A DNA stretch of 64,000 nucleotides from Nitrospinae bacterium CG11_big_fil_rev_8_21_14_0_20_45_15 (lineage in GTDB: Bacteria > Nitrospinota > Nitrospinia > Nitrospinales > VA-1): NCBI GenBank assembly GCA_002787235.1, contig PCWG01000041.1:11713-75712 (forward strand). Reading direction: 5' to 3'. This document shows positions 1-54,902 of the stretch, piece after piece. The number at the start of each line of letters is the position of its first letter. The stretch's first letter is position 1. The notes beneath the pieces were generated by a model. That model saw only the letters and a program-made list of their open reading frames with translations, was not told where the DNA came from and made no database searches. Both the position numbers and the translations under genes were made by a program.

Positions 1-92
1 GATAATTATAAAATTATTTGTTAAATTTTTTAATCTTCTAACTCCTTGTGTGGGTGGGTCTTATGGGATGCGCTGATTCTTCGCATTAAAAT

Positions 93-108
93 TGGCATGG
101 GAGTTGCT
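93..108 (+). promoter_or_regulatory. Candidate sigma-54 (-24/-12) promoter upstream of the first pilin-like triad
   Basis: TGGCATGGGAGTTGCT has the spacing of the consensus TGGCAC-N5-TTGCW. The GG and GC doublets fall at consensus positions 2-3 and 14-15. It lies about 265 nt upstream of the 375 start. Confidence 0.5.
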
Positions 109-374
109 TTTGTTGGGGTGATTGGGCAAGTTTCCCAACTCATGGGTTGTAAGTGCAGGGTATTTGTGGGTTGACGGTTGGGTGTCGGCGAACGATATTT
201 TAAAATAATGATTATTAACTCTGAAACTCTTTGAAGTGATTAATGGTTGCGGTTTCTAATTATTGGATTATCATAAAATTATCAAAGTCAAATTATTTTA
301 AAAAATTTCATCGAACGACCGTTTGCAAGGTGTTTTGGTAATTTTGAGAACCATCTTAACTTGGAGAAATTGTT

Positions 375-1079
375 TTGAAAACTCAGGATAGGAAATCAGA
401 AATAATCCGGCCCGGAGATAGCGAAGGCGAAAAGGGTTTCAGTATGGTTGAGTTGCTCATCTCCATCGCATTATTCGGGGCAGGTGTCTTGGCCTATGGT
501 GGGATGACGGGCACTATCATCGGATTGGATAAAAGAAGCAAGATGGAAAGTATAGCGGTCACTCTTGCGCAAGATAAGATTGAGTATTTTAAGAACGTTG
601 CGCGTTCCAGTGAACTGCCATCCGATGGCAGTTTGACCAATCCCGCATTGTCGGGAGGGGTTTGGGATTCTTCGGGAGATGAAGTCGTGGATGAGTTGGG
701 TGCGACTGGAGGCTCGGATGCTCGTTACACAAGAACCTGGACGATCGAGCCTGTGGCGAATGCTAACCATCTCTACGATGTGGGTGTGAGTGTTGCCTGG
801 GTGGATAAAAGTTCACGAACTGAGACTTTGCATACTTTGATCAATCAGGATGTCGGCGTTGCCGTGGTGTCTGTTGCCGAACAAGCTGAAGACGATTCTG
901 CCAAAGACAAGGACAAGGACAGCGATTCTGCCAAAGATAAGGACAAGGACAGTGACTCTGCCAAAGATAAGGACAAGGACAGTGACTCTGCCAAAGATAA
1001 GGACAAGGACAGTGACAGCGGCGATAAAGACAAAGACAGTGACGCTTCTGCGAAGGATAAAGATAAGGACAGTGATTAA
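375..1079 (+). CDS. Prepilin-type N-terminal cleavage/methylation protein, PilV-like minor pilin (copy 1) with a C-terminal Lys/Asp repeat tail
   Basis: TTG start 7 nt after GGAGAA. Class III signal ...GEKG|FSMVELLISIALFG with Glu at +5 followed by a hydrophobic helix. The paralog at 3955 shares TLAQDKIE/LAQDKLE and RYTRTW/HFTRTW. Confidence 0.7.
   Translation: MKTQDRKSEIIRPGDSEGEKGFSMVELLISIALFGAGVLAYGGMTGTIIGLDKRSKMESIAVTLAQDKIEYFKNVARSSELPSDGSLTNPALSGGVWDSSGDEVVDELGATGGSDARYTRTWTIEPVANANHLYDVGVSVAWVDKSSRTETLHTLINQDVGVAVVSVAEQAEDDSAKDKDKDSDSAKDKDKDSDSAKDKDKDSDSAKDKDKDSDSGDKDKDSDASAKDKDKDSD
891..1076. repeat. In-frame 30-bp tandem repeat (about 4 near-identical units plus degenerate units) encoding (DSAKDKDKDS)n
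   Basis: gattctgccaaagayaaggacaaggacagy is repeated head to tail from 894. The last units are more diverged. Confidence 0.9.
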
Positions 1080-1218
1080 AACAGTTTAGAAGCAGGACCG
1101 TGGCTCAGGTCCAGGTAATTGTTTTAAAATTCTACCAATGCCAGGCGGGACTTGTGGGAGTTGTTGGGTTGCGCTCTGGGAATGATGATGGACAACGTCT
1201 TAAGGCTGGGGAAATCGC

Positions 1219-2007
1219 GTGAATATTCTAAAAAAAATAAAAAGAAACGAGCAGGACGGTGTGACTCTTGCGGAAATTTTGATAGGCATGGCGATCAGTT
1301 CGGCTTTGCTTATTGCGGTATTTAAGATTTTTATTCAGCAACAGAGTGCTTTCGAGAATTTAAACGACAGCACACTGATTCGGGCAAAAGGACGCTTGGC
1401 GATCAAGCTTCTGTCCAAAGAAATCAGGATGGCAGGGCATGGAATGCCCAAAAACTCAGGGATCGTTGCATTTGATTCCACTTCGATCACCTTTTATGTT
1501 GGCGGCGTATCGACGACGACCCCTCCAGGGTCTGCTGGAACCAAAGCGGTTGCAAGTGAGGATACGACGCTCAATGTGGTGAACGCAACGGGTTTTAGCG
1601 ATGGCAACAATGTGGTCATTCATGATCCGGCTTTGGGGACCACAGAGTTTGTTGAAATTGAAGGCACTCCTGAAACTGAAAGCAACCCCAATACCATTCC
1701 TCTGAAAGAGGCCGTGGTTCAGGATTTTATTTATGGCGTCAATTCCAATCTCGTGACAGTGACGGCATACAACACGGTGAAAATTTATCTCAATGACAAG
1801 AATGTTGTCAAAACGGTGGACGGTCAAGAGGTGACCGTTATTCAAGATGTTTCTTCTGGGGATGGTTTGTCATTTGACTTTTACGGCGCGGTTGAAACTT
1901 CCGCAATCGAAAAAGTTGGAATCACCATGAAGTTGATCGATCCTACTAATACCAGGGCAACCATTAATTTGAAATCAGACATAACTTTGAGGAATCAGCA
2001 GTCATGA
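1219..2007 (+). CDS. Prepilin-type protein, PilW-like minor pilin (copy 1)
   Basis: GTG start after GGGGAAA. N-terminus ...DG|VTLAEILIGMAISSALLIAVF with Glu at +5. The paralog at 4467 shares RAKGR..K.LSKE..MAG.G.P and TTPPG/STPPG. Confidence 0.65.
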   Translation: MNILKKIKRNEQDGVTLAEILIGMAISSALLIAVFKIFIQQQSAFENLNDSTLIRAKGRLAIKLLSKEIRMAGHGMPKNSGIVAFDSTSITFYVGGVSTTTPPGSAGTKAVASEDTTLNVVNATGFSDGNNVVIHDPALGTTEFVEIEGTPETESNPNTIPLKEAVVQDFIYGVNSNLVTVTAYNTVKIYLNDKNVVKTVDGQEVTVIQDVSSGDGLSFDFYGAVETSAIEKVGITMKLIDPTNTRATINLKSDITLRNQQS

Positions 2008-3737
2008 AAAAACTCAAAACGAGCTATATGCAATATGCAAAAAAAATGAGGGTTTCTCTAGAGTCGAATTTTTCTGGAGAGCAGGGGGTTGCCCTGATCA
2101 CAACGATGCTTTTCAGCTTTATCCTTGCCGCATTGGCATTGGTTGCCGTCAATTGGTCGACCACCGATAGAACGCGTTCGGCGCAATATATCAAGTCCCG
2201 TTCTGCTTTTTATATCGCCGAAGCGGGAATACAGAAGTCTCTGAATTACCTCAACTACGACGCAAATGGCAATGTGCCGGGCGATGCGGGAGAGGGCTTC
2301 ACCAGTGTGCTGACCAATTTCTTGACAACGCATTCGGCGGATTTGACCGATGTTTCTTATGCGAATGGAACTTTCAATGTCAGCGTGAGCGACAATGATG
2401 ACAATGACAGCGATGGCACGACGGATGTTGACAATACCATCGAGTTGGTTTCCAAAGGAACGAAGGGTAGTACAGAGGTTTCTGTTCGTGCGGTCATACA
2501 TCGCGCTTTGTACAGCCCGGAACACGCCATCGCAACCGAAAGCGCGTTGACCTTTACAGGCAACACCTCCGTCGATGGGACCAAAGGGAGTGTTCATGCC
2601 AATGGCTCCATTACAGGATCTTCCAATGATGTTTCACAAGGGATCACTTCGGCAGACTCCTGCGATTCGCCTTGTACCGTCGTTGGTGCAGAAAACTTTC
2701 CTCAAATCAAGCAGTCAACTTTGGGATCGTACGCAGATTATAACCTCAAAAGTGATGGAACGATCACCAATGCCGAGGGCACGACTTTGGTTCCCGACGA
2801 CAATAATCTGAGCAATCTGGCATATGCAAACACGGCCGATTACGAAGGCTGGCTGGCCTGGGATACCAATGCAGAAGGGCTTTATTATGTGGATGGCAAC
2901 ATCAAGTTCATTGATGCGAGTGTTAAGGATGATGGCTCTTGCTCTAGTGGCAAAGTGCTGATCTGCCATTTGCCCCCGGGAAATCCGGAAAATCAGATTC
3001 AAAAGTGTTTGCCACAACCCGCTGTAGCGGCTCATCTGGCTCATGGTGATACTGAGGGCTTGTGTGGGGATGCTGTCGCATCCGCAGATGGAGATAAGGA
3101 CAAAGACAGTGACAGTGGTGACAAAGATAAGGACAGCGACTCTGCCAAAGATAAAGATAAGGACAAAGACAGTGACAGCGCAAGCCTTCTGCTGGATCTT
3201 TTGTTGCCGAATGTCGCACTGGCCGCAGATAGTGATAAAGACAAAGACAGTGACTCTGCCAAAGATAAAGACAAGGACGGCGACAAAGATAAAGATAAGG
3301 ATAAGGATAAGGATAAGGACAAGGACGGCGACAAGGACAAGGATAAAGACAAAGATAAGGACAGTGATAAGGACGCGTGGAAGGTGTCTGTCATTGCCGA
3401 AGGCAATATCCTGGTCGAAGGAACTCAGAATCTCTTGGACTACAAGAAGAGTTCTCGCTCGGCAGATATCCAGAACCTGTTTTTTCTAGCGGGGGGCGAT
3501 ATCAATATGGAAGGAACCCTTTCGAATACAATCGAGGGGATCATTGCCGCCAAGGAGCAAATCAACATGGCGGGTAAAATGACACTCAAGGGTTATATCA
3601 TTGCAACGAGTGAAACGAATGACAGCTCGGTTGTCACAAGCAACTCGATTTCTAAAGACTTGACGGTTACCTTTCAGGGTTACGGCAATCCGTTCTTAAC
3701 CAAGACGGTGGAAGTGCTTTCCTGGAAGGAATTGTAA
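2004..3737 (+). CDS. PilX/GspK-like large minor pilin (copy 1) with a solenoid-like C-terminal region, a Cys-rich module and KD repeats
   Basis: ATGA overlap with the upstream gene. ...GEQG|VALITTMLFSFILAALALVAV lacks Glu at +5 and is followed by AFYIAEAGIQKSLNYLNYD (PilX_N-like). An internal start at 2046 is possible. Confidence 0.6.
   Translation: MKKLKTSYMQYAKKMRVSLESNFSGEQGVALITTMLFSFILAALALVAVNWSTTDRTRSAQYIKSRSAFYIAEAGIQKSLNYLNYDANGNVPGDAGEGFTSVLTNFLTTHSADLTDVSYANGTFNVSVSDNDDNDSDGTTDVDNTIELVSKGTKGSTEVSVRAVIHRALYSPEHAIATESALTFTGNTSVDGTKGSVHANGSITGSSNDVSQGITSADSCDSPCTVVGAENFPQIKQSTLGSYADYNLKSDGTITNAEGTTLVPDDNNLSNLAYANTADYEGWLAWDTNAEGLYYVDGNIKFIDASVKDDGSCSSGKVLICHLPPGNPENQIQKCLPQPAVAAHLAHGDTEGLCGDAVASADGDKDKDSDSGDKDKDSDSAKDKDKDKDSDSASLLLDLLLPNVALAADSDKDKDSDSAKDKDKDGDKDKDKDKDKDKDKDGDKDKDKDKDKDSDKDAWKVSVIAEGNILVEGTQNLLDYKKSSRSADIQNLFFLAGGDINMEGTLSNTIEGIIAAKEQINMAGKMTLKGYIIATSETNDSSVVTSNSISKDLTVTFQGYGNPFLTKTVEVLSWKEL
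3087..3374. repeat. Hexanucleotide-periodic GAY-AAR (Asp-Lys) repeat tracts inside PilX-like copy 1, related at DNA level to 891-1076
   Basis: Runs of gataaggacaaagac, including gacagtgactctgccaaagataa shared with the 891-1076 repeat. They are interrupted by a hydrophobic SLLLDLLLPNVALAA segment. Confidence 0.85.
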
Positions 3738-3775
3738 AACCGGAAATATTATTTTCGGTTTTGTTTGGAAACTGA

Positions 3776-3805
3776 AAACGGGGGGAGTTTCTCCCCCCGT
3801 TTTTG
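3776..3805 (+). terminator. Rho-independent terminator ending the first triad
   Basis: aaaacgggggag-ttt-ctccccccgtttt: a GC-rich perfect stem followed by a T run, 39 nt after the 3737 stop. A weaker AT-rich hairpin lies at 3737-3763. Confidence 0.8.
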
Positions 3806-3954
3806 GGGATTGAATAAAAAACCTTCTATCTCTGTAAATGTAAAAACAGGTAGTTTCACTTCACTTGTTTCCCCACTGTTTACCCCGTTATTCTTTGTGT
3901 GTTTGTGCGGTTATGCCGTTTCTCAAAAATAGCAGCTTCTATCCAGAGAGAATA

Positions 3955-4470
3955 ATGACTTTGCTGAATTATAATTTCATCCGAAAGGCACATCCCTTGA
4001 AAAAAGTGACAGCGGGCGATTTTGAAAGCAAAAACAGCCTGGGGGCTCAGGAGAGTGGTTTTACATTGGTCGAGATCCTGGTGGCGGTCGTGATACTTGC
4101 GATCGGTTTGTTTTTATTTCTCTCCACATCAGGTTCCATCATGACTAGAAATCAAAAGAGCAGTAATGAAACGATTGCCACTACGTTGGCTCAGGACAAA
4201 TTGGAGCTCATACAAAATACAGCCTTGACCGTATCTTTATCAGGCGCGGATGGATTGGCATCGCCATCCTATTCATCGGGGTGGACCGCGAATGCGAGCG
4301 GAGAGACCATTGACGCCTCTGGAAATACGGGAACTCCGGGTGCTCACTTCACTCGAACCTGGTCGATTGCAGCAGATGGAACCTTGTTTTTTTATTATCT
4401 GGTGACCGTTACGGTGACATGGAACAACGGTGCAAATTCTGTTGTGCTGACCACACAAATTTCACAATGA
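3955..4470 (+). CDS. PilV-like minor pilin (copy 2)
   Basis: ...QESG|FTLVEILVAVVILAIGLF prepilin signal with Glu at +5. I prefer ATG 3955 over the 3865 ORF start because the extra N-terminus looks non-coding. Paralog of 375-1079 without the KD tail. Confidence 0.7.
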   Translation: MTLLNYNFIRKAHPLKKVTAGDFESKNSLGAQESGFTLVEILVAVVILAIGLFLFLSTSGSIMTRNQKSSNETIATTLAQDKLELIQNTALTVSLSGADGLASPSYSSGWTANASGETIDASGNTGTPGAHFTRTWSIAADGTLFFYYLVTVTVTWNNGANSVVLTTQISQ

Positions 4471-5267
4471 GCAAGGACGGCAAAATGCCGAATGAAAAAA
4501 TGTTGAATCATCCCCCAAAAAAGTTTCTTGACGAGCGTGGATTCACCATCGTGGAGATGCTGATTGCTTCTCTGATCGGGGTGATTGTTTTGGGCGCGAC
4601 CATTTACATTTTTACGTTACAGGAAGATGTCTTGAATTCGGAGAATTCCTCCACCGATATTCGGGCAAAGGGCAGACATGCCATGAAGGTTCTGTCCAAA
4701 GAGTTGAAGATGGCGGGGTTTGGTTTGCCCACGAAGGAAAGTGTTACCGCGATCAGTTCAACCTCCATCAGTTATCGAGTCAACAATGACGATGTTCGCA
4801 CCAGCACTCCACCGGGAGCTTCGGGAACGACAATCACCACTGCGGGAGATACGGTCATTACGGTCGTAAATGGATCTGTTTTTACAGATGGTGATAAAAT
4901 TGTCATCTACAATCCAAGTTTTGGGCGGGCGGAATACAATATTGTTGATGGCACACCGACAACGACCAGTATTCCTTTAGATACCGCGTTGATAAACGGT
5001 TACGTAGCCAGTGCCAATGCAAAACTGGTAACGATCAACAAGTACAACGATGTGACCCTTGGCCTATCGGGAACCACTATCACAAAAACCGTGGACAGTG
5101 GATCGCCGGTTACTCTGGTGGGTGAAGTGTCCAATCTGTCCTTCGATTTTTATGGGGTCACCGAGACCTCACTTGTGAAGAGGGTTGGCGTCACGATCAA
5201 CATGCAGGATTCTAACGATTCTAGTATTACCTTCGATTATAAATCTGACGTCATTCTGAGAAATTAA
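4467..5267 (+). CDS. PilW-like minor pilin (copy 2)
   Basis: The ATG at 4467 overlaps the upstream stop (ATGA). ...DERG|FTIVEMLIASLIGVIVLG with Glu at +5. Collinear similarity to 1219-2007. Confidence 0.65.
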   Translation: MSKDGKMPNEKMLNHPPKKFLDERGFTIVEMLIASLIGVIVLGATIYIFTLQEDVLNSENSSTDIRAKGRHAMKVLSKELKMAGFGLPTKESVTAISSTSISYRVNNDDVRTSTPPGASGTTITTAGDTVITVVNGSVFTDGDKIVIYNPSFGRAEYNIVDGTPTTTSIPLDTALINGYVASANAKLVTINKYNDVTLGLSGTTITKTVDSGSPVTLVGEVSNLSFDFYGVTETSLVKRVGVTINMQDSNDSSITFDYKSDVILRN

Positions 5268-5275
5268 AGAGGTCT

Positions 5276-6613
5276 ATGATGATGACTTTTAAAAATTGGC
5301 TTCGAGAAGAAGGTATGCGGCTTAGAGGTTATTTCTCCAGACAAGAAGGGGTTGCGTTGACGACCGCTCTGATTTTATTGGTCGTGTTATCTGCTCTGGC
5401 CTTTGTTTCTGTTCGGTGGACGGCGCAAGACATTCCTCGCACCAAAAATTTTACCAAAACACGCCAGGCCGCCTATATTGCTGAAGCGGGATTTCATCGA
5501 GCGGTCAATTATTTTAATTACGATGCGACCGGGAAAAGTCCGGGAGAATTGAGCAACGGATTCACTGACGAAATCAATGGTAGCAACTGGCCATCGGGGA
5601 CGTTTACAAACATTGCCATGGGTGCAGGGACATACACGGTTACAATTGTCGATAATTCTGACGATGGCGATCAAACGACCGATAGTGACAATGCCGTGAT
5701 TCTGACTTCAACGGGAACCGTCGGAGGGGTGGAGGTCAAGGTGGAAGGAACATTGGTCCGCGCCTTGTATCAGGCTCAGCATGCCCTTGCTACTGATGGC
5801 GATTTGCTTGTCTCCGGGAATCCGACAATAACCGGAAGCAATGGAAGCGTTCATTCCAACAGTGATTTGAGTCTTACCGGGAATCCATCGGTCAGTTCGA
5901 CCGCAACCGCATCGGGAACATTTACCGCGACCGGAAGCCCCTCAGTTGGAGGTGGCACCGCGAGTGGAGCTACGACGGAGGGTATTCCTGTCGTGAACAT
6001 CTCAGATTATAAAAGTACTTCTCAATATGTATTGGGAGCCGACGGTATCGTACGCAACGGAGGCGGGACATTCATCCACGACACCAGTGTCAGTGGAAAT
6101 TTCAGGACCTCTGGCAATGCAAATAAAGGTTGGGGCTACAGTGCGGGGCCGCCCGTCGTTTGGGATTTAGGAGATGATGAAGCATTTGAAGGGACTTATT
6201 ATGTTGAAGGCAGTGCTGAGATGAGTAACAGTGGTTCTTCCGCACATCCATTCGATGTTACCGTCATTGCGGAAGGTCATATTACAGTAGGGGGAAATGC
6301 CACCTTGAGAAATAAGAAGCTGGCCTCCGACCCCGAAGAAGTTCAGAATATTTTCCTGATGGCAGGAACCGATATCGATTTGCAGGGAAATATCAGTAAC
6401 TCCGTACAAGGGATGATTTACGCTGGAGAGCAAATCGAGATATCGGGCAATCCCACCATCAATGGATTTGTTCTCGCCGCAGATTCTGCCGCGTCAGACA
6501 GTGAAGTGACGGCGAACAAGGTGAATGGAAATCCCACGATCACCTACAATGGAGGTTCTGTTTCGCCATTTTTCAGCAACAAAGTCACCGTGACCTCCTG
6601 GCAAGAGTTGTAG
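5276..6613 (+). CDS. PilX/GspK-like large minor pilin (copy 2), solenoid-like C-terminal region
   Basis: ...RQEG|VALTTALILLVVLSALAFVSV (no Glu at +5) followed by AAYIAEAGFHRAVNYFNYD. The C-terminus VTVTSWQEL matches VEVLSWKEL of copy 1. Confidence 0.6.
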   Translation: MMMTFKNWLREEGMRLRGYFSRQEGVALTTALILLVVLSALAFVSVRWTAQDIPRTKNFTKTRQAAYIAEAGFHRAVNYFNYDATGKSPGELSNGFTDEINGSNWPSGTFTNIAMGAGTYTVTIVDNSDDGDQTTDSDNAVILTSTGTVGGVEVKVEGTLVRALYQAQHALATDGDLLVSGNPTITGSNGSVHSNSDLSLTGNPSVSSTATASGTFTATGSPSVGGGTASGATTEGIPVVNISDYKSTSQYVLGADGIVRNGGGTFIHDTSVSGNFRTSGNANKGWGYSAGPPVVWDLGDDEAFEGTYYVEGSAEMSNSGSSAHPFDVTVIAEGHITVGGNATLRNKKLASDPEEVQNIFLMAGTDIDLQGNISNSVQGMIYAGEQIEISGNPTINGFVLAADSAASDSEVTANKVNGNPTITYNGGSVSPFFSNKVTVTSWQEL

Positions 6614-6819
6614 CCGCGACGATTGACCCTGTATCGGCTATATTTCCCCTATTGTCAACTCGTTTTCCCATGCCTTGAAATCATCACACAAACGGATGAT
6701 AACTCCGCGTTCGTGTCATCCCTCCCTCCTGTCGAGTTTGTTTTTCAAAAACCATTGAAGTTAAAAGAAAATTGCGGTACTTTGGTCAGTTCCTTTAACC
6801 CCATTTAGAAATCCCCGCA

Positions 6820-8265
6820 ATGCCATTTGAAGGGTCAGCAAAAATTATAATTGACCAAAGACCGCTTTGGATCGTGATACTCGACCGCTCGCGCCGGGCG
6901 TTGTTTCTGCTTCTGTTCTTTTCTTTATTTGCGTTTTTTCTCAGTCTGGATGGCCCCGACGATCTCTCCCTCGAAGGCTACAGAACCCTTTGTCTGTTTG
7001 GATTGTGTGTCTGTTTGTGGGCGACCAATTTGATTCCCCTTTCGATCACCAGTTTTCTGGTCATTGGAGCCGTTCCCATGCTGGGGATCATGGATTCCGC
7101 GCAGGCCTATTCCTTTTTTGGCAACAAAGCCGTATTTTTCATATTGGGAGCCTTCATCCTTTCGGCGGCGATGATCGCCAGCGGCTTGAGCTCTCGACTT
7201 TCCATGTGGTTTTTAGGGAAATGGGGAGACAGTCCCGTCCGTCTGATCAGTGGCATTTATTTTTTCTCAGCAGTCAGTTCCTGTTTCATGTCCGAGCATG
7301 CCGTTGCGGCGATGTTATTTCCGTTGGTGATGGAGCTGGTCGTTATTTTGAAACTCGAGCGTGGCAAGTCACAACTTGGGAAATCGTTGTTTTTTGCGCT
7401 CGGTTGGGGGTGCATCATCGGAGGTTCCATGACGGTTATGGGCGGAGCCCGTGTCCCTCTTGCGATCGAAATCCTTGAAAAAATCACTCAGGGAGCCCAT
7501 ACAGTTGGATTCGTGCAATACACGACTCTGAGTTTTCCCTTAGTGCTTATTCTTCTCGCAACGGGTTGGTTCACCTTGATTTTTATGTTCACACCGGAAA
7601 AAGTGGACACAGAGCCTGTATGTAAAATGTTGCGAGAAAAGTATGAAGAACTTGGCGGATTGAAATTTCGCGAAAAAGGCGTTGCTTTGGTGATGGTGAC
7701 CACGATATGCGCCTGGTTTGTTTATGGCGATGATGTGGGTATCGCAAACATAGCAATCATTGCAACGGTTGTGCTGTTCACCTTGAACCTGATCAATTGG
7801 AAAATGGTGGAAGAACACGTCAACTGGGCGATCATTTTGATGTATGGCGGGGCGATTTGTCTGGGAGAGGTGATGGCAAGCACGGGCGCGGCCCATTGGC
7901 TGGCGCAAAAGTGTTTTGATGGAGTGGTTGAATCTTCAGGAATGTTTTTAATCGTTTTAGCATTGCTCTCGACGATTTTCACCACCTTCATGAGCAATTC
8001 AGCCGTTATTGCCGTGTTGTTGCCGCCCGCAGTCACTCTTTGCGACAGTTACGGCATCAGCCCCGCACTGGCGACGATGGCCATCGTGATCCCGAGTAAT
8101 TTTGCGTTCATCCTTCCCATTGCGACACCGGCTTCTGCCCTGGCCTATTCTTCACGGTTCATCCCCTTGGGAGACATGATGAAATCGGGGCTACTGCTCA
8201 GCTTCATGGGGATGCTGGCCTTTTACTTTCTGCTATTGATTTACTGGCCCCTGTTCGGATTTTAA
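6820..8265 (+). CDS. SLC13/DASS-family anion (di/tricarboxylate or sulfate):cation symporter
   Basis: 481-aa polytopic membrane protein. The two-halves architecture and WATNLIPLSITSFLVIG / SNSAVIAVLLP motifs are typical of the ArsB/NhaD-SLC13 permease superfamily. Confidence 0.65.
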   Translation: MPFEGSAKIIIDQRPLWIVILDRSRRALFLLLFFSLFAFFLSLDGPDDLSLEGYRTLCLFGLCVCLWATNLIPLSITSFLVIGAVPMLGIMDSAQAYSFFGNKAVFFILGAFILSAAMIASGLSSRLSMWFLGKWGDSPVRLISGIYFFSAVSSCFMSEHAVAAMLFPLVMELVVILKLERGKSQLGKSLFFALGWGCIIGGSMTVMGGARVPLAIEILEKITQGAHTVGFVQYTTLSFPLVLILLATGWFTLIFMFTPEKVDTEPVCKMLREKYEELGGLKFREKGVALVMVTTICAWFVYGDDVGIANIAIIATVVLFTLNLINWKMVEEHVNWAIILMYGGAICLGEVMASTGAAHWLAQKCFDGVVESSGMFLIVLALLSTIFTTFMSNSAVIAVLLPPAVTLCDSYGISPALATMAIVIPSNFAFILPIATPASALAYSSRFIPLGDMMKSGLLLSFMGMLAFYFLLLIYWPLFGF

Positions 8266-23544: not shown

Positions 23545-24324
23545 TCAGCGTAACCCTTTGCTCGAATCGATTTTCTGGAAACCGACGGGGATTTGTGGCG
23601 GTTTGGGCAAGCCGACGGCACTCAGATATTCGTCAAAAGCGGGATCGTTGTATATCTCGTTCGGAATCGGATAACTTTCCCGGTTGCGCATGAAAGACTC
23701 ACGACCGTCTTCTTCCTGCCCGTCGGACAATCCATACTCTTTTTTGTATTCTGGAGGGATGTCCACCTTGTTTTCAAGCAGGTAATTGGTGATCGCCGGT
23801 TCCATAAAAACATGGGAAGGAAGTTTCGCCAGAGGATGCGTGGGAAGAATCTCCCGGGCGCGTTTGGGCGGCTCCGGTCGTTTGAATTTTCCACGCGGGC
23901 GGGCAGGGATTTCCGGACGGATTTTCTCAGGTTGAGATGGCGTCATCACTGCCTTGGGCACCGCATTCGCGACAGGTGCCGCAGGAATGTAGTCTCCCAG
24001 CCCGACGATGCGGATGGTGCTACCGGAAATTTTTTCATTCCACATTTCCAATTTTGAAAAATCTTTCAGCAGTTCACTGACCAGTGTTTTCCAGTCCGGA
24101 GCTTGCAGATTTGCAGTGATCGGGGTGGCAGACAATTCGTCGCGTGTATAAAAGGAAATGCCGCTTTTAGCACTGATGGATTGCAGAACGGCGGCAAGAG
24201 GCTGGTTCGCCGATTTAAAATGAATACCGTCCGGTTGTTGGGTCAGCTCGAAATCACTCGCCCACAAAGGCGGCGCAAGCACGAACCCGATAACACAAAG
24301 AGACAATAAAATTTTGAGCTTCAT
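23545..24324 (-). CDS. Hypothetical secreted protein
   Basis: Signal peptide MKLKILLSLCVIGFVLAPPLWAS and a Pro-rich middle region. I recognise no family. Confidence 0.45.
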   Translation of the reverse strand: MKLKILLSLCVIGFVLAPPLWASDFELTQQPDGIHFKSANQPLAAVLQSISAKSGISFYTRDELSATPITANLQAPDWKTLVSELLKDFSKLEMWNEKISGSTIRIVGLGDYIPAAPVANAVPKAVMTPSQPEKIRPEIPARPRGKFKRPEPPKRAREILPTHPLAKLPSHVFMEPAITNYLLENKVDIPPEYKKEYGLSDGQEEDGRESFMRNRESYPIPNEIYNDPAFDEYLSAVGLPKPPQIPVGFQKIDSSKGLR

Positions 24325-24356
24325 TGCAGAACACCTGACACATTAAAAAACGGATA

Positions 24357-24393
24357 GAAAAAAACCGGGAGAGGAGAACATTCCCCCACCCGG
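24357..24393 (-). terminator. Rho-independent terminator after the collagen-like gene
   Basis: Minus strand: ccgggtggggga-atgttc-tcctctcccgg (imperfect stem) followed by T8. Confidence 0.6.
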
Positions 24394-24423
24394 CTATGAT
24401 TTCATGAGACTTGACCGCTTTCA

Positions 24424-25497
24424 CTACGGAATAGTGTCGTAAATACCGTAAGTACTAAGGAAATACCCGCCGGTGACGGTACTGCAATTATCTCTGGCAA
24501 GATTGCGAAATCCGCCGGTGACGCTACTGTAGTTAGCCGAAGCAGTATTGTAATTTCCGCCGCTGACGCTACTGCTATAAGCCGAAGCAGTATTGCCCAT
24601 CCCGCCGAGGATGCTACTGTATGAACCTGTGGCAGTATTGCCACCTCCGCCATTGATGGCACTTCCGATAACGTAGGCAGTATTGCTAAACCCGCCGGTG
24701 ACGCTACTGGATTGACCTGAGGCATTATTGCGAAACCCGCCGCTGACGCTACTGTATTGACCTGAGGCATTATTGCGAAACCCGCCGCTGACGCTACCGT
24801 CAGAACCCCAAGCAAAATTTCCATTTCCGCCGCTGATGCTGGAGTAAAGTCCTGATGCCTGATTGAATCTTCCACCAGTGACCGAAGCATAAGCATTGCT
24901 GGATTCATTGTCCAAGCCGGCGACAATGGCTCCGTAGCTGGAATAATTGGCACCTCTTCCGACGATCAGGTTATGCGAGCCAGTCTTGTTGCTAGTCAAA
25001 TAACTACTGACCTCGTTGTAACCGACGATCAGGTTGCCCAGTCCGTTGACGGCACCATCTGTATCACCGGAACCATTTACTATCTGCATGTTCATACCCG
25101 TGAACCTGAGATCGTCTCCCGTTCTCGTGACACCGCTGAAACGGGTTTGCAGTTCAGAGATATCCGCATTTACCTGAGTGAGATCGGAACTTCCGTCCGC
25201 ACCCGCAGGACCCTGTGGACCTACAGGACCGGCAGGGCCTTGTGGACCCTGTGGGCCTGGGGTCAATTGTATGTTGTTGATCTGCGCTTGCAAATCCTGA
25301 ATCTGTTGTTGCAGTTGTTCCACTAAATGGCGCAACCCCTTATCGCCGTCGTGATCATCGTCATGACGACCTTCGCTCCTAGATTGGTTTTCATTAGATT
25401 TCGATTTTTCATTACCCGAATCCTTGGCGGCTAAAACAGGCGATGCCGACCACAGGAGACCTGCAATAAGCAATGACATGAACGATAGCGATTTCAT
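24424..25497 (-). CDS. Secreted collagen-like / 14-residue-repeat fibre protein (YadA-head/Hep_Hag-like repeats), with no membrane anchor seen
   Basis: Signal peptide, coiled-coil LVEQLQQQIQDLQAQINNIQ, and seven G-X-Y triplets GPQGPQGPAGPVGPQGPAGADG. These are followed by about 10 repeats of the type SSVSGGFRNNASGQY. Confidence 0.6.
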   Translation of the reverse strand: MKSLSFMSLLIAGLLWSASPVLAAKDSGNEKSKSNENQSRSEGRHDDDHDGDKGLRHLVEQLQQQIQDLQAQINNIQLTPGPQGPQGPAGPVGPQGPAGADGSSDLTQVNADISELQTRFSGVTRTGDDLRFTGMNMQIVNGSGDTDGAVNGLGNLIVGYNEVSSYLTSNKTGSHNLIVGRGANYSSYGAIVAGLDNESSNAYASVTGGRFNQASGLYSSISGGNGNFAWGSDGSVSGGFRNNASGQYSSVSGGFRNNASGQSSSVTGGFSNTAYVIGSAINGGGGNTATGSYSSILGGMGNTASAYSSSVSGGNYNTASANYSSVTGGFRNLARDNCSTVTGGYFLSTYGIYDTIP

Positions 25498-25834
25498 GAG
25501 TGCGTCCTTTTCGGTTGTGTTTTAAATACTAGACTATTAAAACTAATTCAATTGGCTACAAAATATTTCATCCCCAATACAACAAAAACTTAGGTAAGTG
25601 TAAAGCTAGTAAAACTATCATTCAAGTCAAAAAAAGCAACCAAAACTCTAGACGCTCCGTCCTATTTGACACTGAAAATCTGTTATCAACAGAATAGTAA
25701 AACAAACCAAAGGTTGGTGGGGGAGGGGTCAAACCTGGAATATTGCAAGCAAACTGGTAAAAAACGCTTATGGACACAAAGCTCAGTCACTATCAGCTTA
25801 TAATGGCGCGGGGGAGTGGCTTTGGAGCTGTCAA

Positions 25835-26452
25835 TCAGTTGGGGAGATCTTTCGGGGAATCTAAAATCAAAGCCGGGAGCAAAGTTTCCCACTCCTCGTA
25901 ATAAGGATGTATTTCATACTCTAAAAGGTCGGCTAAAAGAACCCAGTCCTTGTTTTTATTCGCGTCCACCATTTGCAGGGTCAGGTTAGTCAACTGATCG
26001 TGGCGTTCTTTCATCGTTTTACCATCGATACTCAGTTCATCCAGACTAAAACCCTGCACGGTCACAACCACCTGCAGGACTTGCGAGAACCAGTCAATGC
26101 CGTCAATGATCTGCACGAAAAATTTATTGGCCTCAATCTCGTTTTCATTACGAAACAACTCCGATGCCTTTTCGATACCCGGCAGAAGACGCTGCAAATA
26201 GTTCTGCGCATTGGTAACATTCTTCACCAATGAATCGTTCAGCAGGTTGACATTCGCTTCAAGGGTCTCAATTTCTGTAACAGGAAGGGCATTGATGTCA
26301 TCTGCATTTGCGGAAACCTCTTTGCCATCAATAAGAAGGCGCGATATAAAATATTTAGAACCATCGACATCTTGTAAAATAGCGTCCAGAATATCTCTGA
26401 CCTGGTTCCCTGCGATAGCGGGTCTTTCTTTTCCGTTGACGATTATTTTCAT
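25835..26452 (-). CDS. Hypothetical protein, divergent from the flagellin gene
   Basis: 205-aa ORF with a small beta-grasp-like N-terminus (MKIIVNGKE...) and a helical C-terminal part. I recognise no family. Confidence 0.4.
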   Translation of the reverse strand: MKIIVNGKERPAIAGNQVRDILDAILQDVDGSKYFISRLLIDGKEVSANADDINALPVTEIETLEANVNLLNDSLVKNVTNAQNYLQRLLPGIEKASELFRNENEIEANKFFVQIIDGIDWFSQVLQVVVTVQGFSLDELSIDGKTMKERHDQLTNLTLQMVDANKNKDWVLLADLLEYEIHPYYEEWETLLPALILDSPKDLPN

Positions 26453-26597: not shown

Positions 26598-26635
26598 AAC
26601 AGGCAAGCAGTTTTCTGTTGTTGGGAGAATTTAAA

Positions 26636-27487
26636 ATGGCTGTATCGAGTCCCTTTGGAAATGTGAACAACATCCTGAATTCCATTCAGAACAATCGCAC
26701 TGGCATACGCGATACGCTGGATCGAATCAGCTCTGGACGACGCCTGAACCGCGCCGGAACCGATCCCGCCAGCAGTGCCCTGTCGCAACAATTGAAATCT
26801 GAAATCCGCTCTTTGACTCAGGCGGTACAAAATGCTGAGACCGGCGGAAACTTTGTACGAACGGTTGACAGTAGTCTTGAAAGCATTGGCGAATTGCTGG
26901 CACGTGGGCGCGAATTGGCCAGCCAGTCTGCCAATGGAACTCTCAACGATACGCAACGTCAGACGATCGATCAGGAATTTCAACAAATTCGCAAAGAGAT
27001 CGACCGTACTTCTCAAACCGCGAATTTCAACGGCCAGAAATTTCTCGACGGCTCGCTGAGCTCGGGAGCTTCCCGTCCCGTGAACATTCAAGTGGGTTCG
27101 GGAAGTGGACCCGAAAATCAAATCAACCTGAATGTCGTGGACGAGGTATCGAGCCAGGGGCTGGGCATTGACAACACGGATCTTTCCACTTCGGCGGGTG
27201 CTTTGCAGGCCATCGACACGCTCGATCAGGCCATTGGTACGGTGACTTCAAGCCGGGGACAGGTGGGCGCGGTTTCCAACCGGCTTTCAAGCGCAACGCG
27301 AGGTCTGGAATCGACGGTCCAAAATCTGACGGAAGCCGAATCGAATTTGGGCGATGCCGATATTGCGAAAGAAATCAGCAATCTGAAACAAAGTCTGACA
27401 CAGTTTGAAGCCTCCATCCGCACGCTCGGCATCCAGAACCAGATCAACGAACGCAGTTCGGGCGGCTTGCTCAATCGCATCGCTTGA
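26636..27487 (+). CDS. Flagellin-family protein (short, D0/D1 only; FliC/FlgL family)
   Basis: ATG 8 nt after GGGAGA. The N-terminal helical region ISSGRRLNRAGTDPASSALSQQL...ELASQSANGTLNDTQRQTIDQEFQQI fits the family. So does the C-terminal AVSNRLSSA...LTEAESNLGDADIAKEISNL. Confidence 0.75.
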   Translation: MAVSSPFGNVNNILNSIQNNRTGIRDTLDRISSGRRLNRAGTDPASSALSQQLKSEIRSLTQAVQNAETGGNFVRTVDSSLESIGELLARGRELASQSANGTLNDTQRQTIDQEFQQIRKEIDRTSQTANFNGQKFLDGSLSSGASRPVNIQVGSGSGPENQINLNVVDEVSSQGLGIDNTDLSTSAGALQAIDTLDQAIGTVTSSRGQVGAVSNRLSSATRGLESTVQNLTEAESNLGDADIAKEISNLKQSLTQFEASIRTLGIQNQINERSSGGLLNRIA

Positions 27488-27688: not shown

Positions 27689-27737
27689 CTCGCACAATGC
27701 AGAGGTGTGCAATGGGCACACCTCTGCATTGTGCGAG
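27689..27737. repeat. Perfect 22-bp inverted repeat (hairpin, 5-nt loop) between convergent genes
   Basis: ctcgcacaatgcagaggtgtgc-aatgg-gcacacctctgcattgtgcgag. No flanking T run. Confidence 0.9.
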
Positions 27738-27826
27738 CGATCGGTCAGAGATCTTTCTCTTCGTTCCGGATGACATTCGAGGGGGGGGGTAGATGCAATA
27801 GCTCAGAAAAAAATCAGGAAGCTTTG

Positions 27827-28267
27827 TTACTCGCCTTCGGCTGGAGTTTTTTCCTTGCTCGCGTCCAGTTCGACTCTCATTTTTTTAATGAGTGCCACTT
27901 CTTTGAGCAGTTCTCTTTGGAAGGAAATCATATCCAGATTGATCCTGTTTTGCATGCTTGCCAATGTGGAATCCATATTTTCCAACTGCGCTTGCTGGAC
28001 GGTGCGGCTGAAGAAAATAAAACCCACGAGGAGAACAGTCAATCCAGTATAGAGGATAATTCGCAAGGTGATGTTTTCTGTTTTTCGGATATGCAGGGTT
28101 TTTTTGATGGTTTCAATATCACGCGCAAGGTTTTCTACTTTTGCGTTCAGGCTTTCGATGCGGGGGTCGGAACTTCCTGTGTCATTGTTATCCATGGGCT
28201 CTGCATGCTCCTCTATAAATTTCACTGCTTTGTTCTGCATTTTAGACCTGCATAAAAAAAATTCCAA
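27827..28267 (-). CDS. Hypothetical single-pass membrane protein with coiled-coil segments
   Basis: One TM segment (ITLRIILYTGLTVLLVGFIFF) flanked by heptad-like helices. It lies 29 nt downstream of pilD on the same strand. The likely start is ATG 28240 rather than TTG 28267. Confidence 0.45.
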   Translation of the reverse strand: MEFFLCRSKMQNKAVKFIEEHAEPMDNNDTGSSDPRIESLNAKVENLARDIETIKKTLHIRKTENITLRIILYTGLTVLLVGFIFFSRTVQQAQLENMDSTLASMQNRINLDMISFQRELLKEVALIKKMRVELDASKEKTPAEGE

Positions 28268-28296: not shown

Positions 28297-29094
28297 TTAC
28301 ATCATGGATCGTAAATAAAGGAAAATCAATTCATCTCCCCAAAAAAACGCCACCAGGGTTCCTGCGGCCAAAAAGGGTCCGAAAGGTATTTGACTCATGC
28401 CATTCAAACGCTGATCGAGCATGCCGACGAGACCAACAATCGATCCCAAAAACGCGGCAATAAAAATAACCAGAAAAGTTTTTTGCCATCCCAGCAACGC
28501 TCCGGCTCCGGCGATGTATTTTACATCGCCCATGCCCATGCCGATCTCTCCACGCAATCTGTAATAAACTTCGCCGATGAAAAGGAACAATCCGGCTCCG
28601 CTGATAAATCCTATAACGGAGGGCCAGAGGCCTTCCAGATAAATTCCCCCCGCCAGTCCGAAAAGCATCCCCGGCAGGGTGATGAGGTTGGGAATGATTC
28701 GATGTTCGATATCAATCGCGGTGATGATGACGAGCGCGGGACCCAGAATGAAGAAGATGGCAAACTTCCAACTCCAGCCAAACTGGAAAAATCCTGCGGT
28801 CAACAATACAGCGGTGATCAACTCAATGAAGGGATAAATCCAGGAAATCCCGGCCTTACAATGTCGGCATTTCCCGCCCAAAATGAGGTAACTCAGAATG
28901 GGGATGTTATCGAACAAACGGATCGGGGTCTGGCACGAGGTACAATGGGAACCGGGAAAAACAACCGATTTTTCCTGTGGCATTCGGTAGATGCACACGT
29001 TTGCAAAACTGCCCACGAGCAGTCCAAATGTGAAAACGACCAGGCCCTGAAAGGGAAGGGGGGCATTGCTCAATTGTTGCAGGGAATCAATCAT
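28297..29094 (-). CDS. pilD: Prepilin peptidase / N-methyltransferase (A24 family)
   Basis: GLLVGSFANVCIYRMP, Cys pairs CTSC...CRHC, and the Asp motifs of A24 peptidases (GMGDVKY, ITAIDIEHRIIPN). Confidence 0.88.
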   Translation of the reverse strand: MIDSLQQLSNAPLPFQGLVVFTFGLLVGSFANVCIYRMPQEKSVVFPGSHCTSCQTPIRLFDNIPILSYLILGGKCRHCKAGISWIYPFIELITAVLLTAGFFQFGWSWKFAIFFILGPALVIITAIDIEHRIIPNLITLPGMLFGLAGGIYLEGLWPSVIGFISGAGLFLFIGEVYYRLRGEIGMGMGDVKYIAGAGALLGWQKTFLVIFIAAFLGSIVGLVGMLDQRLNGMSQIPFGPFLAAGTLVAFFWGDELIFLYLRSMM

Positions 29095-29563
29095 CGTCAG
29101 TCGGGGTTTGGAGAATTGCGTAGATGATGCTCACCGGAAAGCCTTTACGCTCTAAAAAAGGGGCCAGTCGCTTGCGTTGTTTATCGCGGTCGAGATGCGC
29201 CATCGTGCGCATCTTTTTTTCAGCGCACGCTTCGGCAAGCTTGAATTCGTCGATCTCCTCGTAGAGATCGCGCAGGGCAGAAGCCGCAGTTTCTCCCTTT
29301 ATCCCTCTTTGCGCTAATTCCTGTAGCAAGCGGCGCGAACCCCAGAACCTCGACTGGATGCGGGATCGCCCCCATTGACGGGCCAATTCCGCATCGTTGA
29401 CATACTTCAGTTCTTTCAGTTCATCGACAACCGACTGAGCGCAATCAGGAGAAATTTCTTTTTTTTCAAGATGATCAAAAATTTCCGCGACGCTTCGATT
29501 CTTGAAGGCTAGAAACTTAAAGGCAATCGAACGCGCTCGCTTCCTCTCTTCCTGAAGGCTCAT
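29087..29563 (-). CDS. recX: RecA regulator RecX
   Basis: 158 aa with three-helix repeats typical of RecX. It sits immediately downstream of recA (15-nt gap), and its 3' end overlaps the pilD start by 8 nt. Confidence 0.8.
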   Translation of the reverse strand: MSLQEERKRARSIAFKFLAFKNRSVAEIFDHLEKKEISPDCAQSVVDELKELKYVNDAELARQWGRSRIQSRFWGSRRLLQELAQRGIKGETAASALRDLYEEIDEFKLAEACAEKKMRTMAHLDRDKQRKRLAPFLERKGFPVSIIYAILQTPTDDD

Positions 29564-29578
29564 GTCAAAGTAGAATGG

Positions 29579-30637
29579 CTATTTCCCTTTTTTCTTACTT
29601 CCGGTATCTTCGTCATCAGTGACAACAGATTCTTCACCGCTACCAGTAAACCCGAGTGTTTGTCTCAGTTTGACATAGAGCTCGTCGTAAATATCCGGAT
29701 TGTCTTTTAAGAATTTCTTCGCATTGGCGCGACCTTGCCCGATGCGGTTTTCGTTGTAGGAAAACCAGGTTCCACTTTTGGCGATGAGTTCATGCTCCAC
29801 AGCCAAGTCCAGCAGATCACCGGTTTTTGAAATTCCTTCGCCATAAATGATATCGAATTCACAATCCCGGAAGGGCGGTGCGACTTTATTTTTTACAATG
29901 CGCACGCGCGTTCGGTTACCGATGACCTGATCGCCATCTTTGATCGCCGCGATGCGCCGAATGTCCATGCGAACGGAGGAATAAAATTTCAGCGCATTGC
30001 CACCGGTGGTGGTCTCGGGATTGCCAAACATCACTCCGATTTTCATTCGAATCTGGTTGATGAAAATAAGGGTCGTGTGCGACTTGCTGACCACACCGGT
30101 CAATTTGCGCATGGCCTGAGACATGAGTCGGGCTTGCAATCCCATATGCGAATCGCCCATATCGCCATCCAGCTCAGCTTTGGGAACCAGTGCGGCAACG
30201 GAATCGACGACGATGACATCCACCGCGCCACTGCGTACCAGAACTTCTGCGATTTCGAGCGTTTGCTCCCCGGTATCCGGTTGCGACAAAAGCAATTCAT
30301 CAAGATCCACTCCCAGTGCCTGGGCATATTTAGGATCGAGCGCATGCTCTGCGTCGATAAAAGCCGCAGTGCCACCGGCCTTCTGCGCTTCTGCAATGAT
30401 GTGCAGGGTGAGACTGGTTTTTCCTGATCCTTCAGGGCCGAAAATTTCGACGATACGGGAACGGGGCACACCACCGACTCCCAACGCATTGTCCAGAGTA
30501 ATGGACCCTGTGGATATAACGGGAATGCCTTTTTGCGCTCCGGCCTGTCCCAACTTCATTATGGAACCTTTACCGAATTGCTTTTCGATTTGAGAAAAGG
30601 CCAATTCCAGAGCTTTCTCTTTTTCGGTTGACGACAT
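29579..30637 (-). CDS. recA: Recombinase RecA
   Basis: [23 protein letters not shown], the Walker A motif GPEGSGKTS, and [28 protein letters not shown]. Confidence 0.97.
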
Positions 30638-53843: not shown

Positions 53844-54902
53844 TTACAACTCCCCTAATTCTACAGGGAGATCGCCACGTCCCGGTTCAGAATGAGGAGC
53901 GGTGGCTGGAGATTGAGGATTGGCAACATCCTCCTTCAATTCACGATTCCAGACCTTTTGGATGGATGGCCAAAGATATCTGACCGCCTGCCCTGCGGCG
54001 ATGTCAAACGCTTCCATTTCCGCAACCAGAGGATCCGCATTCTGGGCAACTGCAAATTCGCTACGTGCCGAAATGAGAGCAGAACTTAAAGCCGAAACGA
54101 CATTGAGACTGATATTCGACTGAATGGACACCTCTCCCTCCTGCGAAGTTGCCCGCTGGGAAGATGCCGCATTTCCCAGAATCACCAGATCCGCACCGGC
54201 TTTCAAACCAATATGCGCGGCCACTTTCATATCGCCGTTCAGGGCCTTCATGATAGTTTCTTCGGGAATAGAATCCTGAACAAGCTTGCGACCGATGATA
54301 TTCGCACCCGCCTCTATGAGCTTTTGCGACAGCGCGGTTTCAGATATGGGAACCAGTTGCCAGAAAGGTCGCGGTTTGCTTGAGGTATAACTCAACTCTC
54401 GAATCAATACCAGGATCCCTTTTTCTTTGACATTGCTTGAAAAAAGCCCCTGCGAACTCAAGGTATTGGCCAGAACATTGTAGAAAAAGGTGGCTTCCAG
54501 TTTTATATCGCTGGTTTGGGCAACTTGATTGTCTGCGGCATAAAGAATACGATAACTTTTGACGTAATCTTCCGCATCCCTGACAACACCGCCCAATTCC
54601 CTTGAATTGGATGCATATTCCTCTTCTCCCAAAAGAGATTTCAGCGCATAGCGCAAAGCCTCTTGCAGAGCTTTGGAAATCGCACGTTTTCTTCCGACCA
54701 CATAATTCCCATCATTGACACCCACACTTGCTTCAGCAAAATGCACAGACTGAAACGCTTTTGCTTCAACCGCGTCGGTCGAGTGCCGGGAATGAAAATC
54801 ATCTACCGCAGGTTCTTGCCCGGCTACCGGGCTTGCCAGCAAGCAGAGAATTGACAGCATCAGCAATCCCTGCCAGGAAAATATTTTGAGCAAAAACCTC
54901 AT
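53844..54902 (-). CDS. Hypothetical secreted/periplasmic protein
   Basis: Signal peptide (LLMLSILCLLASPVAGQ). The start overlaps the rluB stop (ATGA). The N-terminal GRKRAISKALQEALRYALKSLLG loosely recalls LPP20/FlgT-N-like domains, but this is unverified. Confidence 0.45.
   Translation of the reverse strand: MRFLLKIFSWQGLLMLSILCLLASPVAGQEPAVDDFHSRHSTDAVEAKAFQSVHFAEASVGVNDGNYVVGRKRAISKALQEALRYALKSLLGEEEYASNSRELGGVVRDAEDYVKSYRILYAADNQVAQTSDIKLEATFFYNVLANTLSSQGLFSSNVKEKGILVLIRELSYTSSKPRPFWQLVPISETALSQKLIEAGANIIGRKLVQDSIPEETIMKALNGDMKVAAHIGLKAGADLVILGNAASSQRATSQEGEVSIQSNISLNVVSALSSALISARSEFAVAQNADPLVAEMEAFDIAAGQAVRYLWPSIQKVWNRELKEDVANPQSPATAPHSEPGRGDLPVELGEL

Follow-up and report, generated by a model that had tools for sequence, protein, structure and literature searches.

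The insertion in GspK, the large cap protein of type II secretion systems (T2SSs), is an alpha-helical domain and not a solenoid. The GspI-GspJ-GspK tip complex to which it belongs is reportedly that of Korotkov and Hol 2008, PDB 3CI0, with the EpsI-EpsJ pair being 2RET/3CFI. A different type of cap is ComZ of Thermus thermophilus, which is found with PilA1-PilA2-PilA3, has been proposed as a tip subunit, and was itself reported to resemble GspK in its pilin domain and ice-binding proteins in its solenoid (6QVI; PMC6561018). In cyanobacteria, two solenoid-PilX sets (Com and EPS) prime two distinct filaments on one machine, and in all cyanobacterial PilX the solenoid lies between the penultimate and last strands, where it is proposed to be a tip plug replacing PilY1 (bioRxiv 10.64898/2026.02.12.705559). 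Several minor-pilin/PilY1 modules of Myxococcus xanthus serve one type IVa pilus (T4aP) machine, with expression being condition-dependent (PMC7541494, PMC8833165). The subject here is a stretch of 64,000 nucleotides (nt), referred to as the window, from a marine Nitrospinota bacterium, near the start of which two consecutive trios of genes, set 1 (g1, g2 and g3; 375-3737) and set 2 (g4, g5 and g6; 3955-6613), probably encode two alternative core minor-pilin (priming or tip) modules for a type IV filament, with the machine and major pilin encoded elsewhere. The window begins 374 nt before g1, and a further 10 kb upstream was read from an identical metagenome contig (L001), bringing the sequence seen to about 74 kb.

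The resemblance to Thermus is in the third member of each set, with its Glu5-less GspK-like domain and predicted triangular beta-solenoid inserted in the pilin sheet, and in its being encoded beside a GspI-like and a GspJ-like minor pilin. Binding of the neighbouring GspI-like pilin (PilA2) and of double-stranded DNA is a further mark of the ComZ type. In contrast to the Thermus locus, there is here no adjacent GspH-like PilA1 or major pilin, the proteins are acidic, and the sets are two, tandem and paralogous, one of them having an insert and repeat tails that are not in ComZ. Judged by their published description, the cyanobacterial sets are like the present ones in being two per genome, in consisting of PilV, PilW and a solenoid PilX, in the absence of PilY1, and in separate transcription or regulation. 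They differ in having a FimT member and in usually being non-adjacent, and the Asp/Lys tracts and Cys/His module of set 1 (below) are undescribed there. The Myxococcus clusters have four minor pilins, a PilY1 adhesin and a small PilX, whereas each set here has three genes, one of them for a solenoid PilX and none for PilY1. The six genes are as follows.

375..1079, plus strand: g1, set 1 member 1, PilV/GspI-like prepilin of 234 amino acids (aa), G|FSMVE; N_methyl 22.6 bits; TIGR02523 E 3e-5, 24.5 bits, sub-threshold
1219..2007, plus strand: g2, set 1 member 2, PilW/GspJ-like prepilin of 262 aa, G|VTLAE; N_methyl 19.6 bits; PRK10557 E 8e-7, sub-threshold
2004..3737, plus strand: g3, set 1 member 3, ComZ-like PilX/GspK-type putative tip pilin of 577 aa, Glu5-less; PilX_N 27.1 bits
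3955..4470, plus strand: g4, set 2 member 1, PilV/GspI-like prepilin of 171 aa, G|FTLVE; N_methyl 27.3 bits; TIGR02523 E 6.7e-10, 39.6 bits, sub-threshold
4467..5267, plus strand: g5, set 2 member 2, PilW/GspJ-like prepilin, G|FTIVE; N_methyl 23.2 bits
5276..6613, plus strand: g6, set 2 member 3, ComZ-like PilX/GspK-type putative tip pilin with beta-solenoid, 445 aa; assigned from homologs, AlphaFold2 (AF2) model and Foldseek

Cut-offs were, for Pfam, 21.2 bits for N_methyl (PF07963), 25.5 bits for PilX_N (PF14341) and 27 bits for DUF7305 (PF23981), and, for NCBIfam, 52.2 bits for TIGR02523 (PilV), 130 for GspK, 44.35 for GspI and 64.85 for GspJ. The six open reading frames (ORFs) make two collinear triads, and public gene calls on identical metagenome contigs concur, the g2 stop overlapping the start of g3 and g5 being 266 aa by the public call (4467) or 260 aa if its start is at 4485. 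BLASTP comparison of the paralog pairs within the window gave 34% identity for g1/g4 (E 6e-25), 42% for g2/g5 (E 3e-64) and, for g3/g6, 36-38% over two blocks, one on either side of an insert in g3 (E 3e-51 and 2e-25). The third members have G|VALIT (g3) and G|VALTT (g6), with Thr at +5, followed by AFYIAEAG and AAYIAEAG, respectively, and their C-termini are SWKEL and SWQEL. An earlier note on this DNA had described just such an arrangement, i.e. six plus-strand genes in two collinear triads, class III signals with Glu at +5 in members 1 and 2 and without it in members 3, and paralogs that are diverged yet share motifs and C-terminal ends, and on each of these counts it was borne out. In profile searches members 1 and 2 are of prepilin type; N_methyl is above cut-off for g1, g4 and g5, with g2 falling just short despite its G|VTLAE. 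In a six-frame scan of the window, only the four prepilin motifs of g1, g2, g4 and g5 head a hydrophobic pilin-type helix, two further motif matches being within unrelated ORFs and without such a helix. All six mature proteins are acidic, with isoelectric points (pI) of 4.4-4.8 (g6 has 18 Lys plus Arg against 41 Asp plus Glu). By the called starts, leader peptides are 14-35 aa in all six genes, and start codons may be mis-assigned; leaders of type IVa pilins are typically 5-7 aa.

The evidence on the third members is of several kinds. A search with g6 found 109 homologs, many of them matching PilX_N (PF14341) together with DUF7305 (PF23981) or Bactofilin (PF04519). PilX_N gives only 11.3 bits for g6 itself, and 33-35 bits for its homologs P0007 and P0017, which have the same motif; similarly, neither g3 nor g6 has a DUF7305 match at E<=1, while P0007, at about 45% identity to g6, reaches 31.9 bits. 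When a profile of the g6 family (96 sequences) was compared with all PDB sequences, it matched Thermus ComZ (6QVI) over the pilin domain with E 2.8e-5. The AF2 model of g6 (mean predicted local distance difference test, pLDDT, 90.7; predicted template modelling score, pTM, 0.81) has a 59-residue N-terminal helix (23-81), a four-strand pilin sheet (113-166), solenoid rungs (171-423) and a closing strand (429-444). In it, the long C-terminal strand rejoins the pilin sheet, with a short-strand solenoid of about 250 residues between. Searched against PDB with Foldseek, the model had three ComZ chains as its top matches (6qvi_A with E 1.4e-10 and probability 1.0, the others with E to 6e-9), and DUF3494 ice-binding proteins came next.

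The prediction of a solenoid behind the third-member helix is thus upheld by a modelled beta-solenoid inserted in a pilin fold. From profile and model, the third members are to be regarded as homologs of ComZ and not mere analogues, and because the likeness is in both sequence and fold, ComZ, which had been cited as a precedent, becomes a relative. The modelled similarity of g6 and ComZ is at the level of domain and topology, with domain orientation or size differing. To have called both third members giant was an overstatement, as g3 exceeds g6 only through a 150-aa insert made up of low-complexity repeats and a small module.

For members 1 and 2, family assignment is less direct. Member 1 is classed as PilV/GspI-like from its size and from sub-threshold profile matches, that of g4 and g1 to TIGR02523 spanning positions 2-79 of 139. 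NCBIfam matches of the six proteins are all sub-threshold (PilV, GspI, GspK and prepilin-peptidase-dependent protein). The homologs of g5 fall into 64 clusters, mostly of about 257 aa, those assigned to an organism all being Nitrospinota and some sources calling them PilW; the Pfam PilW model has no match to g5. A profile of the PilW-like family matched PDB sequences in the N-terminal helix only. The AF2 model of g5 (pLDDT 87.3) has a long helix, beta sheets and an extra beta subdomain. Nothing was found for it by Foldseek at E<=1e-3, and beyond a local likeness to EpsJ (dealt with below) it has a weaker match to Thermus TTHA1219. GspH and PilY1 are matched by none of the six proteins, with either Pfam or NCBIfam, and by nothing else in the window.

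Pfam analysis of the approximately 40 ORFs at 6.6-64 kb revealed no pilB, C, M, N, O, P, Q or T, no PilY1 and no major pilin, and the 10 kb upstream has none of these either. What there is upstream comprises rpsA, cmk, tyrA, pheA and a Thiamine_BP gene, and downstream there are housekeeping genes, a flagellin gene and a pst operon. The earlier note had remarked on the lack of a major pilin, PilY1 and assembly genes nearby, and this stands, with the exception of a prepilin peptidase gene that it missed, about 22 kb from the triads.

28297..29094, minus strand: prepilin peptidase (PilD), directly downstream of recA-recX; A24_N_bact E 4.7e-34; Peptidase_A24 E 1.8e-19

This PilD is the enzyme expected to process g1, g2, g4 and g5.

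The question of what kind of filament or pseudopilus is involved arises from the composition of the sets. Each is a trio of I-J-K type, with a large Glu5-less member and no H-type one, and in composition, size order and possession of a large Glu5-less cap the trios match GspI-GspJ-GspK, the g5 model also being locally EpsJ-like. The triads could then be GspI-GspJ-GspK pseudopilus tips of a type II-like or a polysaccharide secretion system. There are weak NCBIfam matches to GspI, GspK, XpsH/I and HpsB/C, the pilin domain of ComZ resembles GspK (PMC6561018), and the cyanobacterial PilX_EPS (HpsA-like) is tied to polysaccharide secretion (bioRxiv 10.64898/2026.02.12.705559). The Gsp scores, however, are far under their cut-offs (16.9 bits for GspK against 130, 25.7 for GspI against 44.35 and 11.9 for GspJ against 64.85), and PilV, PilX_N and ComZ match better. 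No T2SS (gsp) gene is present in the 74 kb examined, source annotations of homologs say PilW or PilX, and the insertion in the cap is a solenoid, different from that of GspK. A secretion pseudopilus is accordingly considered unlikely, and it is, like the two other alternatives treated below, less well supported than two tip modules for a type IV filament.

Among the loci compared with the window were those of two carriers of set 1 (L013 and L016), that of Candidatus Nitrohelix vancouverensis (L005), and L010 and L012. Of the homologs with a named source, those nearest to the proteins of the window belong to Candidatus Nitrohelix vancouverensis and to other Nitrospinota. In L013, whose g2 ortholog is 79% identical, both triads lie between the same Thiamine_BP gene and major facilitator superfamily (MFS) gene as in the window. 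L016, with a g2 ortholog that is 81% identical, has the same flanks, with set 1 as its sole triad and the orthologous MFS gene immediately after it. Nitrohelix has, at the same site, a triad of set 2 type and then a different pilin cassette (L005:11833-16609) encoding a GspH-like protein of 202 aa, a small pilin of 177 aa, a PilX_N protein of 611 aa and a prepilin of 587 aa. A Nitrospina metagenome-assembled genome has a single set-2-type triad amid housekeeping genes, and in a further Nitrospinaceae genome a ComZ-like gene stands alone. A related-locus search with a narrow alignment yielded three Nitrospinota genomes. Among 5.8 billion proteins, the homologs of g2 make up just 3 clusters, and a metagenome scan with the set-1 PilW-like proteins gave 4 loci, most of which were not new.

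In a neighbour-joining tree of the PilW-like proteins, those of set 1 form their own long branch with 100% bootstrap and are not sister to g5, which groups with its orthologs P0261 (100%) and that of Nitrohelix (66%). As the set 1 branch stands apart from the g5 orthologs, either the split is old, as the earlier note had surmised, or set 1 spread by transfer inside the phylum. A recent tandem duplication is ruled out by the tree and by the 34-42% identities. Both triads are intact among relatives, and for every computable gene the ratio of nonsynonymous to synonymous substitution (dN/dS) against orthologs is 0.04-0.18, values that are approximate since dS is saturated; pseudogenisation of one set is ruled out by the intact orthologs and the low dN/dS. 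Set 2 is the common or standard Nitrospinota type, and set 1 a rare, long-diverged lineage. A protein that could have been taken for a g3 ortholog with a different C-terminus (P0183) proved to be the L013 protein, which is of full length, in a variant or frameshifted call.

Other arrangements were encountered in the same comparison. The 587-aa Nitrohelix prepilin has Big_1/invasin-like Ig domains and EF-hand-like matches, with a PilZ-domain gene downstream. L010:8001-11765 has two ComZ-like/PilX_N genes in tandem (493 and 463 aa), and L012:4285-9380 has two divergent minor-pilin sets with a PilD gene nearby.

Set 1 has, in addition, features of its own.

867..1076, plus strand: repetitive Asp/Lys/Ser tail at the C-terminus of g1, about 70 aa, with SAKDKDKDSD as unit; by Tandem Repeats Finder, 4.1 copies of a 30-bp period, 96% matches
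2940..3065, plus strand: 42-aa Cys/His module of g3 (residues 313-354), C-H-x-PPGNP-x-N ... A-H-L-A-H-G-D-x-x-G-x-C; phmmer
3066..3374, plus strand: Asp/Lys repeat tract of g3 with hydrophobic island SASLLLDLLLPNVALAAD; tandem repeats

The 150-aa insert of g3 is in the solenoid loop equivalent to g6 residues 318-326, and comprises the 42-aa module and then two tracts, the first of Asp/Lys, with the hydrophobic island SASLLLDLLLPNVALAAD, which is conserved, between them. It is missing from 14 homologs aligned and is retained in L013-L016, where ortholog lengths are 577, 589, 596, 600 and 620 aa, with length varying (589, 596 or 600 aa) even between near-identical contigs. Comparably, g1 is 224 or 234 aa through gain or loss of one 30-bp unit between otherwise identical contigs. 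The repeat DNA of the g1 tail and of the g3 tract has 81-85% identity over 52-62 nt, and within each genome members 1 and 3 have the same repeat flavour, DKDKDSDSAK in the window, (DK)n in L013 and DKDKDG in L016. The shared repeat DNA and the flavour common to a genome point to repeat evolution that is concerted and fast.

The Cys/His module is of wider occurrence. With phmmer against 1.84 billion representatives, it was found in 2245 proteins at E<=1e-3, at up to 22 copies per protein. The carriers, e.g. P0110-P0259, are proteins of up to 3300 aa that usually have 2-22 copies in tandem, with short Gly-, Glu-, Asp- and Asn-rich linkers in between, and a few of them bear adhesin-type domains. 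The consensus is K-[IV]-T-I-C-H-x-P-P-G-N-P-x-N-x-x-T-I-x-[IV]-x-x-S-A-x-x-A-H-L-A-H-G-D-x-x-G-x-C, with C, H, PPGN, N, H, HGD, G and C near-invariant. No Pfam or NCBIfam model matched it, and the literature searched had nothing relevant on the PPGNP motif or on DUF7305. The module has the look of an extracellular mini-domain that is as yet undescribed, possibly with a disulfide and a His/Asp metal site.

The two sets differ also in their transcription signals, the points of departure being the following two features.

93..108, plus strand: sigma-54-type -24/-12 element TGGCATGGGAGTTGCT, 1 mismatch, 265 nt upstream of g1
3775..3806, plus strand: intrinsic terminator AAAACGGGGGGAGTTTCTCCCCCCGTTTTT between the sets, a 7-bp G/C stem and then a T run

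With GG at -24 and GC at -12, the sigma-54 consensus used was TGGCAC-N5-TTGCW. The window has no exact match to it and three with 1 mismatch, of which TGGCATGGGAGTTGCT alone is intergenic by the ORF map. The element TGGCAT-N5-TTGCTTTAT is kept upstream of set 1 in the window, at L013:5894 and at L016:3982, and while flanking sequence has diverged, it provides the longest invariant blocks on which the three set-1 upstream regions align. The same type of element precedes the GspH-type cassette of Nitrohelix (L005:11582). Upstream of set 2 it is missing in the window, in L013 and in Nitrohelix. Set 1 is, on this motif evidence, probably transcribed from a sigma-54 promoter. The hairpin with its T run between the sets is a clean one (the earlier note, which called it strong, had it at 3776-3805), and L013 has a hairpin of different sequence at the same position. 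With a terminator after set 1 and a sigma-54-type element before set 1 only, the sets look like separate transcription units, as had been proposed. A scan with the sigma-70 consensus showed no enrichment. A riboswitch in the 265-nt leader, e.g. for cyclic di-GMP, was considered and discarded, an Rfam search of 1-7000 having given noise only. A second conserved box, TTATTGGATTAT(C/A)AT, is present in all three set-1 loci, at about 262-276 in the window, i.e. about 100 nt before the g1 start, and may serve as another promoter or as a site for a regulator.

Were the two sets redundant duplicates of the same specificity and regulation, with one being a drifting spare, their common gene order and fold family would be accounted for, as would the relatives with one set only. 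It is distinctly unlikely that this is so, given identities of 34-42%, a set 1 that has its own long branch and is not sister to set 2, low dN/dS in both, and the keeping by three species-level relatives of the set 1 additions (tail, insert and module), together with a conserved promoter element and a terminator that set 1 has to itself.

The additions bring to mind the Ser-Asp stalks of the staphylococcal Clf/Sdr adhesins of the MSCRAMM type (microbial surface components recognizing adhesive matrix molecules), for which there are low-complexity NCBIfam matches (ClfB/SdrD) and which are likewise surface proteins with long, length-polymorphic, acidic dipeptide-type repeats. The tracts here, by contrast, are polyampholytes of Asp-Lys(-Ser), and the proteins that bear them are of pilin type, come from a diderm, and lack an LPXTG anchor, an A domain and any homology beyond the repeats. 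That set 1 might be no part of a pilus and instead comprise membrane-anchored adhesins, or a short pseudopilus 'stalk', displaying module and tracts, for which the occurrence of the module in large multi-copy proteins (a few with adhesin-type domains) and the chance that bulky additions impede secretin passage might also be adduced, is very improbable with the V-W-X trio, cleavable prepilin signals and ComZ-like fold all retained under low dN/dS and, to go by ComZ, a bulky tip subunit being compatible with a pilus (PMC6561018).

Returning to two tip modules for a type IV filament, a mechanism can be proposed on the model of GspIJK, of ComZ-PilA2 and of the priming complexes known from cyanobacteria and Myxococcus. 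Each module would be a GspI/J/K-type trio of a PilV-like protein, a PilW-like protein with an extra beta domain, and a Glu5-less PilX/GspK-like cap whose pilin fold is broken before the last strand by a triangular beta-solenoid. The three N-terminal helices would bundle in the inner membrane, the Glu5-bearing members would be cleaved by PilD, and the trimer would then nucleate polymerisation of the major pilin and stay at the fibre tip, with the solenoid capping the tip in place of the absent PilY1 and offering a binding surface. Set 2 would provide the standard Nitrospinota tip, and set 1 a differently regulated one with different surface chemistry, which would display, in addition, a pair of flexible polyampholyte tracts rich in Asp/Lys and a small disulfide/His-rich module. 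By the same analogies, we infer that the modules assemble at a pilus tip, that they share a machine, and that the two tips may give that one machine different specificities, in keeping with what is published for cyanobacteria and Myxococcus, the ligand being perhaps an adhesion target or perhaps DNA. A further step, taken tentatively and with considerable doubt, is that set 1 could be an undescribed decorated tip that is switched by sigma-54, has co-evolving hypervariable Asp/Lys tracts in two of its subunits, and has a cap bearing a 42-aa disulfide/His-rich module from a widespread unannotated extracellular family, possibly one that binds metal or mineral.

A number of observations weigh against this interpretation in one or other of its parts. 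In the approximately 74 kb of genome seen, the major pilin and assembly genes were not located, and the locus is without a fourth core member of FimU/GspH type. For member 1, a PilV-like profile built from four orthologs matched PDB sequences in the N-terminal helices alone. The likeness of the g5 model to EpsJ is local (Foldseek probability 0.96-0.99, root-mean-square deviation (rmsd) 2.6-4 A over about 91 columns) and has an E of 0.05-0.2. Between g6 and ComZ the global TM-score is 0.31 and the rmsd 15 A, at approximately 12-13% identity. The sigma-54 pattern is not enriched window-wide, with 43 matches against 34.5 expected, and the promoter assignment is one of motif. Finally, the acidic pI of the mature proteins speaks weakly against their acting, like ComZ, as DNA receptors.

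Elsewhere in the window, recA, recX and pilD are co-oriented and contiguous at 28297-30637 on the minus strand, with pilD overlapping the recX stop by 8 nt, which suggests a recA-recX-pilD operon coupling recombination genes to prepilin processing. In the pst operon, a phosphate-ABC permease-like protein of 755 aa (BPD_transp_1; 45897-48164, minus strand) has weak WD40/beta-propeller matches at about residues 230-430, an unusual fusion. ORFs of 180-360 aa without a significant Pfam match are at 23545-26452 (minus), 27707-28255 (plus), 53844-54902 (minus) and 62624-63232 (minus); three such ORFs adjoin the flagellin gene (26618-27487), and one has a weak collagen-repeat match.

Nitrite oxidation in the ocean is mainly the work of Nitrospinota, and the literature searched has no description of pili or surface appendages in them (Nitrospina/Nitrohelix). 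Solenoid cap pilins of ComZ type and multiple minor-pilin sets are already published, for Thermus, cyanobacteria and Myxococcus, and what is new is in the details, namely that the sets are from another phylum, that they are in tandem and have no FimU-type member, and that set 1 is decorated and probably under sigma-54 control. Current models are not overturned, and the value is incremental. The locus suggests that ComZ-type solenoid caps are used by Nitrospinota in place of PilY1, and with at least one lineage of the phylum keeping two differently regulated tip modules, 'one machine, several tips' would reach another phylum. Set 1 gives a handle both on polyampholyte tracts at a pilus tip and on a common unannotated Cys/His mini-domain (more than 2,000 protein clusters), and, if the tentative reading of set 1 is true, this module would give its pilus a specific ligand, be it a metal, a mineral or a particle surface.

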